NCBI GenBank assembly: GCA_016867315.1
Contig: VGJV01000001.1
Span: 34,863-98,862 of the forward strand
Direction: 5' to 3'
From: Candidatus Liptonbacteria bacterium
GTDB taxonomy: Bacteria; Patescibacteriota; Minisyncoccia; UBA6257; 2-01-FULL-56-20
DNA: 64,000 bases
A model generated the notes under the pieces. That model had not been told where the DNA came from and did not search any database. It saw only the letters and a list, made by a program, of their open reading frames with translations. The translations under genes were made by a program, and so were the position numbers. Below, piece by piece: positions 10,924 to 11,038 of the stretch. Position 1 is the stretch's first letter; each line of letters begins with the position of its first letter.

Positions 10924-11038
10924 AGGTTTAAATTTCTAATTACTAATTGTCTAATTTCTAACTAAGTCCCAATTCTCCAATTTCCAAATTTGAACATTTT
11001 TTAGAAATTAGGAATTAGATATTAGGTATTACTCGCGA
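10924..11038. repeat. AT-rich intercistronic repeat element, copy X (groES-groEL spacer); related to 26784-26871
   Basis: Shares blocks AAATTTCTAAT, CTAATTACTAATT, CTAACTAAnTCCCAATT, TTAGAAATTAGGAATTAGA with copy Y; contains inverted repeat TAATTTCTAA/TTAGAAATTA. Confidence 0.5.

Follow-up and report, generated by a model that had tools for sequence, protein, structure and literature searches.

Why do the intercistronic spacers of two different gene pairs, groES-groEL and gmhA-gmhB, carry a common AT-rich repeat? Both pairs are encoded by the minus strand in the window (the whole 64-kb stretch of DNA analysed here), whose host is a member of the Patescibacteria/Paceibacterota; the best match of its GroEL, 85% identical, comes from a Patescibacteria MAG. 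The initial annotation had described the two spacers as homologous, each with an inverted repeat that could fold into a hairpin with a long loop, and had proposed an RNA processing or stabilising element, an internal promoter or a translational-coupling spacer as candidate roles. We consider it probable (about 0.7) that both spacers are ORF-less (MITE-like) copies of an IVS-type insertion element, which fold into long stems in the operon mRNAs.

Two spacers built on one plan

The positions and lengths of the spacers agree with those in the initial annotation (Table 1). Both lie inside minus-strand gene pairs in the same orientation to transcription, as described there; domain matches confirm the pairs as Cpn10/Cpn60 and SIS_2/HAD, and the four shared blocks that had been quoted all occur in both spacers. 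Aligned on the transcribed (-) strand, the spacers are identical in 79% of the columns. They have in common an exact 19-mer (TCTAATTCCTAATTTCTAA), a 24-mer with two transitions (AATTGGGAYTTAGTTAGRAATTAG) and a junction free of repeats (GGGAYTTAGTTAG), and their heptamer variants follow one another in the same order. All eight matches of TTAGNAATTAG in the window fall inside the two spacers, vs 0.12 expected, so that their similarity is neither due to chance nor confined to stop-codon words, and the homology stands. With up to three mismatches allowed, CTAATTCCTAATTTCTAA likewise has eight matches in the window, where 0.12 would be expected; the two spacers account for six, and the other two belong to a heptamer array at 4495-4526.

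Table 1. Positions of the two spacers, their elements and the neighbouring features in the window
Feature	Position	Strand	Sequence or size	Basis or setting
groES-groEL spacer	10924-11038		115 nt	minus-strand gene pair
gmhA-gmhB spacer	26784-26871		88 nt	minus-strand gene pair
Element A, ORF-less IVS-like palindromic element	10931..11025	(-)		sequence, fold, arm-profile nhmmer
Element A, 5′ arm	11001..11025	(-)	tandem heptamers CTAAT-AT CTAAT-TC CTAAT-TT CTAA	sequence
Element A, centre	10966..11000	(-)	loop AAAATGTTCAAAT + TTGG-type heptamers TTGGAAA TTGGAGAA TTGGGAC	sequence, fold, family alignment
Element A, 3′ arm	10931..10965	(-)	TTAGTTAG AAATTAG ACAATTAG TAATTAG AAATT	inverted copy of 5′ arm
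Element B, second ORF-less copy	26789..26868	(-)		sequence, fold, arm profiles
Element B, 5′ arm	26846..26868	(-)	AATTTCTAATTCCTAATTTCTAA	sequence, inverted repeat
Element B, 3′ arm	26789..26822	(-)	TTAGTTAG GAATTAG TAATTAG ATATTAG AAATT	sequence
groES (Cpn10), upstream cistron of element A	11039..11329	(-)		domain match
groEL (Cpn60), downstream cistron of element A	9256..10923	(-)		domain match
SIS-domain gene (gmhA-like, SIS_2), upstream cistron of element B	26872..27480	(-)		domain match
HAD phosphatase gene (gmhB-like), downstream cistron of element B	26232..26783	(-)		domain match
groES 5′ UTR hairpin	11330..11419	(-)	heptamer arms of another unit family	fold -38.4 kcal/mol, z -5.2
CIRCE-like operator	about 11422-11447	(-)	TGGCACTC-N9-GAGTGCTAA	between groES promoter and 5′ UTR hairpin
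groES promoter	11483-11456	(-)	TTGACA-16-TAAAAT	scores 11/12
Unpaired or weakly paired heptamer arrays	4485-4533, 9151-9188, 19303-19332, 20220-20255, 59979-60010		TAGNAAN/GTAGCNN units	other spacers

Read 5′ to 3′ on the mRNA strand, both elements open with CTAATNN heptamers, which form the 5′ arm, and continue through a short loop into a longer 3′ half, in which TTGGNNN heptamers are followed by TTAGNNN heptamers up to the terminus AATTAGAAATT. The 3′ half is an inverted 5′ arm, the palindromes being imperfect; the TTGG-type heptamers in the centre of element A are the inner repeats of this half. Lag 7 gives the best autocorrelation in both spacers. Element A takes up 95 of the 115 nt of the groES-groEL spacer, beginning 13 nt past the groES stop codon and ending 7 nt short of the groEL ATG; this start has no Shine-Dalgarno (SD) sequence, and the sequence of the element reaches position -8. 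Element B takes up 80 of the 88 nt of its spacer, 3 nt past the TAG stop and 5 nt short of the ATG.

A family dispersed in metagenomes

In one scan of metagenome contigs with a 22-nt junction motif (TTGGGANTTAGTTAGNAATTAG), 54 stretches were found to hold 57 matches between them. They belong to many projects and have GC contents of 0.31 to 0.53; the window copy of the spacer element was identical in three other samples. The highest density was four exact motif matches (five arm-profile matches) per 11 kb. The distinct copies, 47 in number, are imperfect palindromes of 80-166 nt with termini AATTTCTAATT...AATTAGAAATT; across them, the sequence in which the heptamer variants follow each other is conserved, as are the junction GGGAYTTAGTTAG and the arm asymmetry. 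They adjoin dozens of unrelated genes in many organisms, and their ends lie ∼0-17 nt from the adjoining stop and start codons; between co-directional genes, 23 copies were in sense and 11 in antisense orientation. Copies residing in one contig have loop sequences in common, which points to spread by copying. The element is not operon-specific, a fact missed by the initial annotation: it belongs to a large dispersed heptamer family, found in both orientations and with 23S_rRNA_IVP relatives.

The junction motif had no matches in viral contigs, and no rRNA genes were found by Rfam beside family copies in the window and 20 loci. At the 13 ends inspected no target-site duplication was evident, though the AATT termini could hide one. 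Heptamer copy number was constant, with no 7-nt arm indels in 13 contig pairs (97-99.99% identical), and strain pairs with 99-99.9% identity showed no presence/absence polymorphism of the element.

Two further observations were made in these contigs. Unusually long spacers (300-670 nt) of the metagenome contig Ga0209587_1001442 (L104) are packed with repeats, namely five copies of the CTAATT/AATTAG element, arrays of the 8-mer AACAATTT, and four to five copies of a ∼100-nt repeat, TGGAGTGTAGAAC...GTTCTACCCGAAAGCGGG...AACACTCCA. Two contigs that are 99.2% identical (L139, at position 10761, and L140) differ by a 7-nt indel, TGGCTAT, which splits the prepilin-peptidase gene in one of them; this frameshift polymorphism inside a coding region is exactly one heptamer long.

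Full-length relatives carrying the 23S_rRNA_IVP gene

In at least eight independent contexts the same two arms enclose an ORF of ∼119 aa (L086/L101/L125, L104, L109, L116, L124, L126, L139, L141 and L142); in all of these loci up to L126, the arms stand ∼350 nt apart around a 119-aa ORF. The enclosed ORF matches PF05635 (23S_rRNA_IVP) with 41.7 bits (cutoff 33.8) and TIGR02436 ('four helix bundle protein') with 61.3 bits, and has a PDB relative, 2rld. In L101, the 5′ arm begins directly past the gyrA stop codon and the 3′ arm stops 8 nt before the next ATG. Tandem heptamers of the 5′ arm adjoin the ORF start in the cassettes. Decay of the ORF is seen as well: in L086 it is broken by a 13-nt deletion. 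Hairpin-only copies have in their loop CCCAATGAACAAAAAGTT, which contains the first 12 nt of the ORF.

Arm profiles were built solely from the arms flanking IVP ORFs and were run with nhmmer on the 64-kb window. They matched exactly the two spacers and nothing else at E<0.01, the right-arm profile with E-values of 4e-12 (element A) and 8e-9 (element B) and the left-arm profile with 5e-6 and 7e-4, respectively. The window copies are thus homologous to the arms of ORF-bearing cassettes, and the family is dispersed in many metagenomes. No IVP gene is present in the 64-kb window; since homologous full-length copies have the ORF and the window copies do not, we file the latter as ORF-less derivatives, not as complete members.

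These results bear on two other origins of the repeats. In the first, the repeats would be an ordinary heptanucleotide LSSR made by slippage, and the likeness of the spacers would be convergent low complexity of stop-codon words. Period-7 arrays are over-represented in the window (seven regions at lag 7, including 26793-26813 and 26846-26868, vs 0-3 at lags 5, 6 and 8-12), heptamer LSSRs are likewise over-represented in many bacteria (cited in PMC4679880, PMC4692102) and the CTAA/TTAG units have stop codons on both strands. Slippage is hard to reconcile, however, with the variant order, junction and arm asymmetry conserved in both window copies and the 47 distinct metagenome copies, with the constant heptamer number in near-identical strains and with other cassette lineages whose units, such as TACGAAA and CAATTCG, are free of stops. 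The conserved non-repetitive parts and the arm-profile matches largely refute this explanation, to which we give very little credence.

In the second, the elements would be miniature derivatives of a conventional transposon, either MITEs of a DDE element or REP/REPIN sequences moved by a RAYT Y1 transposase. Such a descent would be in keeping with the inverted arms at their termini (AATTTCTAATT...AATTAGAAATT), their intergenic sites, their many copies per genome and their genome-specific subfamilies. Yet the sole ORF found between the arms encodes a 119-aa four-helix-bundle protein and not a transposase or RAYT, no transposase was found with family elements, no target-site duplication was evident at the inspected ends, and the arms are heptamer arrays of variable number instead of fixed terminal inverted repeats. 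We regard this descent as improbable and prefer to place the elements in the family of the IVP-bearing, IVS-type cassette.

Inverted heptamer arrays around the IVP gene in five phyla

The protein family is large, with >7,900 homologues of one query at E<=1e-5, the top 120 being 73-82% identical; named sources include Paceibacterota, Portnoybacteria, Zambryskibacteria and Omnitrophica. We inspected 25 IVP genes, whose hosts belong to the Patescibacteria, Cyanobacteria, Bacteroidota, Chloroflexota and Spirochaetota. Every one of the 25 ORFs is located between co-directional genes, and heptamer arrays flank 22-23 of them. The association of inverted heptamer arrays with the IVP gene extends across phyla.

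Three loci (L139, L141, L142) have 3-4 IVP genes per 6-14 kb, all intercistronic and co-oriented with their neighbours. Inverted heptamer arrays flank each gene, with a unit that differs per cassette (CTAATT/AATTAG, GTAAC/GTTAT, GTAT/ATAC and AATAACC/GGTTATT). The flanks of 13 cassettes out of 15 proved complementary (z -2.6 to -11.2), in most instances with a period of 7. Within the plasmid collection, the chief hosts of the gene are Nostoc and other cyanobacteria, with Bacteroidota, Chloroflexota and a Treponema as further ones; nine of the ten plasmid copies inspected have arrays on both sides and one has an array on one side. Heptamer arrays beside the gene were seen in Nostoc, Dolichospermum, Planktothrix, Chondrinema, Chlorohelix, Treponema, Bernardetia, Pseudanabaena and Gloeocapsa. 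The Nostoc punctiforme cassette, for example, reads (CAATTCG)x4 - ORF - (TTGCGAA)x4 and that of Dolichospermum (TTCGTAA)(TTTGGAA)x6 - ORF - (TTACGAA)x4, while the arms are AATCCCC/AATCGTA in Planktothrix, ATTTTAG/CTAAAAT in Gloeocapsa and Chlorohelix, and about 35 x GAAAGNG vs CTCTCCG in Treponema. Protein lineage and arm unit diverge together: eight CTAATT-arm proteins have mutual identities of 66-81%, and identities of 10-41% to differently armed paralogues of the same genomes.

A CTAA/TTAG unit that recurs every 7 nt puts stop codons in all frames of both strands. A 'six-frame stop barrier' was rejected as a general explanation, because this does not hold for other cassette units such as TACGAAA and CAATTCG.

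Some of the plasmid cassettes have noteworthy neighbours. In L146, L148 and L152 (plasmids of Planktothrix, Chlorohelix and Gloeocapsa), four-helix-bundle cassettes are situated within defence operons, one between DISARM drmD and BREX pglX and another, with ATTTTAG arms, between a DUF1156 gene and a Swt1-HEPN gene; this last trio, with the same arms, is common to a cyanobacterium and a Chloroflexota member. On a plasmid of Nostoc sp. ATCC 53789 (L153, 773-1051), a 'hypothetical protein' encoded 3′ of the four-helix-bundle gene opens with TTGCGAATT, the unit of which is the (TTGCGAA) arm of the N. punctiforme cassette. The match covers the first bases of the ORF only, and the 'hypothetical protein' may be an array mis-called as an ORF start.

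Folding, and the level at which selection acts

Each spacer folds into a long hairpin on the sense strand, in agreement with the initial annotation (-22.5 kcal/mol, z -2.6 for the spacer of element A; -26.7 kcal/mol, z -4.4 for that of element B). The stems of both window copies are AU-rich and imperfect, and these z-scores are moderate. Between the arms of the family there is no excess of G:U pairs over A:C mismatches (51 vs 45), hence no sign of selection on RNA rather than on a DNA palindrome. As to covariation in relatives, the picture is divided: RNAalifold on 22 family members found none of 17 pairs compensatory, a test that is uninformative because the stems within the family are invariant, whereas across cassette lineages the arm sequences have been wholly replaced and complementarity retained. 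The whole window had no Rfam match at the gathering threshold.

The hairpins might instead be a cis-regulatory RNA that evolved in the host for these operons (a processing site, a stabiliser or a stop-start coupling device) and not mobile DNA. Such a role would suit the sense-strand hairpins of both spacers and the closeness of the element ends to the upstream stop (3-13 nt) and the downstream ATG (5-7 nt). It would also suit a genome that is nearly SD-less (a loose SD at best in 8 of 72 starts in the window), whose internal cistrons must initiate translation in some other way. Strong hairpins (z down to -8 to -10), made of 7-8-nt units of unrelated sequence, are present as well in the orthologous groES-groEL spacers of many Patescibacteria. 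This variety is what one would expect if different cassette lineages had colonised a permissive site again and again, and could also reflect some benefit from a hairpin at that position. In the relatives L007 and L008, however, the groES-groEL spacer is just 2-4 nt long, so that the operon does not need a hairpin. The same element is found in many organisms, in either orientation and next to dozens of genes unrelated to each other; its arms are those of a cassette with an ORF, and it shows neither a bias to G:U over A:C nor within-family covariation. Stable structure in co-directional spacers is, moreover, no commoner in CPR than in non-CPR loci. Taken together, this makes a host-evolved regulatory RNA unlikely.

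The comparison of spacer structure covered co-directional spacers of 50-220 nt, whose z-scores did not differ between close relatives, other CPR and non-CPR loci. We had considered that CPR spacers are in general unusually structured and dropped the idea, as the fractions with z<-3 are alike (0.35, 0.44 and 0.37, respectively).

If the element acted as DNA, be it as an internal promoter or as a binding-site array for a host regulator, this would be compatible with the AT-richness and the period of 7, three units of which make about two helical turns, and with the lack of an RNA-specific wobble signal. Promoter and terminator scans detected no terminator and no sigma-70-like -35/-10 pair at 16-18 nt spacing in either spacer, in contrast to the strong promoter upstream of groES (11/12); the internal promoter proposed in the initial annotation thus finds no support. 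With the element present in both orientations beside unrelated genes, and no regulator identified, we hold a DNA-level function to be highly improbable. The insertion-element origin of the two hairpins is the explanation that we carry forward.

Other heptamers and gene starts in the window

The 90-nt hairpin in the groES 5′ UTR has heptamer arms of the type TGACNNN/NNNGTCA (AATGACT GATGACA ... TTGGTCA TTGGTTA TTTGTCA TAGGTCA), and the base of its stem covers the groES AUG. The units TTGGTCA, TTGGGGA and xACAGT seen here match published units of the STRR type; the first reports of STRRs date from ∼1990. TIGR-Tas arrays, which consist of ∼36-nt units beside tas genes, were discarded as a parallel on account of the 7-nt units here.

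Among the arrays with TAGNAAN/GTAGCNN units (Table 1), one runs up to the ATG at position 19333, one overlaps an epimerase gene's stop codon and one precedes a tRNA-Leu promoter. The third fragment of the repeat, which the initial annotation had placed at 13174 in the grx-dsbA spacer, is only an exact 10-mer (AATTACTAAT; three matches in the window vs 0.08 expected), and is matched by neither arm profile; this spacer (13168-13202) also has a weak 8-bp palindrome (AATCAATAATTATTGATT, z -1.5) and is too short for family assignment.

TATAAT-like boxes are found 6-9 nt before several ATGs, e.g. those of the genes with starts at 14686(-), 57593(-) and 20760(+), so that the mRNAs may be leaderless. 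The spacers at 16594-16718 and 51260-51392 have a 39-nt sequence in common (92%, in inverted orientation). The shared leader, GGTTCCGCxxGCGGAACCTGyCTCTAACGGG, immediately precedes the ATGs at 16714 (+) and 51264 (-), and each of these spacers opens with complementary CCCGTTAGAGAC; the 39-nt repeat may be a shared structured leader.

Proposed origin and fate of the elements

The following scheme would account for the two spacers. A full-length element would consist of a heptamer 5′ arm, a ∼119-aa 23S_rRNA_IVP/TIGR02436 gene and a 3′ arm that is an inverted copy of the first. Its insertion would take place between genes of the same direction and occupy the interval that separates the upstream stop codon from the downstream start codon. 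The window copies would have lost the gene, or would never have had it, their arms closing over a short loop; derivation could run either way, by deletion of the ORF from the loop or by insertion of an ORF into a hairpin. Elements of this kind would spread as selfish DNA tolerated between cistrons, with any benefit to the host being secondary.

In the groESL and gmhAB transcripts the arms would pair into an imperfect stem of 25-35 bp, the base of which would hold the upstream stop and the downstream start. By analogy with the rRNA IVSs of Coxiella, Leptospira and Salmonella, this stem would be a substrate of RNase III, and cleavage would either separate the two cistrons or leave structured ends that alter stability. 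RNase III, which is specific for double strands, and not RNase Y or J, would thus be the expected nuclease. The window contains no RNase III gene; among the other Patescibacteria loci a homologue was seen in just one (L039). A role of the element in translational coupling or in mRNA stabilisation is a possible one, as a candidate only.

A wider reading is more speculative, and we put it forward as a tentative conjecture against which the odds presently run. Much or most of the heptamer arrays of bacteria (STRR/LSSR of Cyanobacteria, Bacteroidota, Xanthomonas, Patescibacteria and others) might be the arms and debris of one ancient class of IVS-like mobile cassette, whose pentameric four-helix-bundle (S23p/Avd-like) protein would specifically recognise its own array, about one unit per subunit, and so promote the spread of both ORF-bearing and ORF-less copies. 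Spread may, on this conjecture, proceed via RNA excised by RNase III. If it is true, rRNA IVSs and intercistronic hairpins like those in the two spacers would be one and the same element, resident in different hosts.

Decades of cataloguing have brought no accepted origin or function for heptanucleotide tandem repeats. The present data join them with a large four-helix-bundle family, the gene of which is found between inverted arrays in five phyla. They open up the hypotheses that the protein binds its own array, that RNase III excises the element from mRNA and that strains are polymorphic for its insertion. For the annotation of small CPR genomes, the data mean that such elements can fill the entire gap between essential cistrons, e.g. 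groES/groEL; they may pass for regulatory RNAs, and their arrays may be mis-called as ORF starts.

Comparison with known systems

Heptamer LSSRs are over-represented in many bacteria (cited in PMC4679880 and PMC4692102), with units such as GGGAATC in Xanthomonas and GGGGATT in Nostoc (PMC4692102) or TAACTGA in Beggiatoaceae (PMC4679880). Both papers describe inverted pairs, of which Xanthomonas has 70-75 (PMC4692102), and arrays abutting SD-less start codons; groES is marked among the repeat-associated genes on the genome map of PMC4692102. For the origin and function of the repeats these 2015 papers offer hypotheses only, and neither mentions an S23p or four-helix-bundle gene. Full-text searches of one literature library found no paper connecting heptamer repeats with this gene, whose '23S rRNA IVS protein' four-helix-bundle family was still called functionally uncharacterized in papers of 2023 and 2024. 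Our elements resemble STRR/heptanucleotide LSSRs in having tandem 7-nt units in intergenic or intercistronic DNA, often a few nt before an SD-less start and frequently in inverted pairs. They differ in that the arrays are the arms of a four-helix-bundle gene cassette, in the window unit (CTAATNN/TTAGNNN) and, with regard to LSSR slippage, in having no arm length polymorphism between close strains.

The Avd protein of diversity-generating retroelements is a homologous four-helix-bundle protein, and some cassette ORFs match bAvd/DivGenRetAVD weakly (33.5 bits vs an Avd family cut-off of 80); the reverse transcriptase and TR/VR repeats that accompany Avd were not found beside the cassettes examined. 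With REP/BIME, REPIN and bacterial MITEs the elements share their nature as dispersed extragenic palindromes in operons, with transcribed hairpins, many copies and genome-specific subfamilies. Unlike REP/REPIN-RAYT and MITEs, they are associated with a gene that encodes neither a Y1 nor a DDE transposase, and their arms are tandem heptamer arrays.

In CPR, rRNA genes contain ORFs of 23S_rRNA_IVP, and numerous short insertions without an ORF are found at their IVS sites (PMC11270868). These insertions come from the same phylum (CPR) as the elements described here, which, like the short ORF-less rRNA IVSs of the Salmonella type (∼90-110 nt), are ORF-less stem-loops of ∼80-140 nt in a tolerant transcribed region. 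The host transcript differs, being an mRNA spacer, and the likeness drawn here is one of anatomy.

The 23S rRNA IVS of Coxiella burnetii carries an S23p ORF of the PF05635/TIGR02436 family and a 28-bp stem of terminal inverted repeats; 3-4 tandem GACAGAT heptamers, in a number that varies by strain, stand just before its ATG, and RNase III cuts the stem at the first repeat (PMC4990558). In comparison with such S23p-ORF IVSs (C. burnetii, Leptospira), our elements are located between protein-coding cistrons and not in helix 9, 25 or 45 of 23S rRNA, the window copies are without the ORF, and copies are numerous, certain genomes having several per 10-20 kb. What they have in common with these IVSs is the terminal inverted repeats that form a long stem, a loop ORF of PF05635/TIGR02436 that is oriented with the host transcript, heptamers directly before its ATG, variants in which this ORF is decayed or absent, and a sporadic, apparently horizontal distribution.
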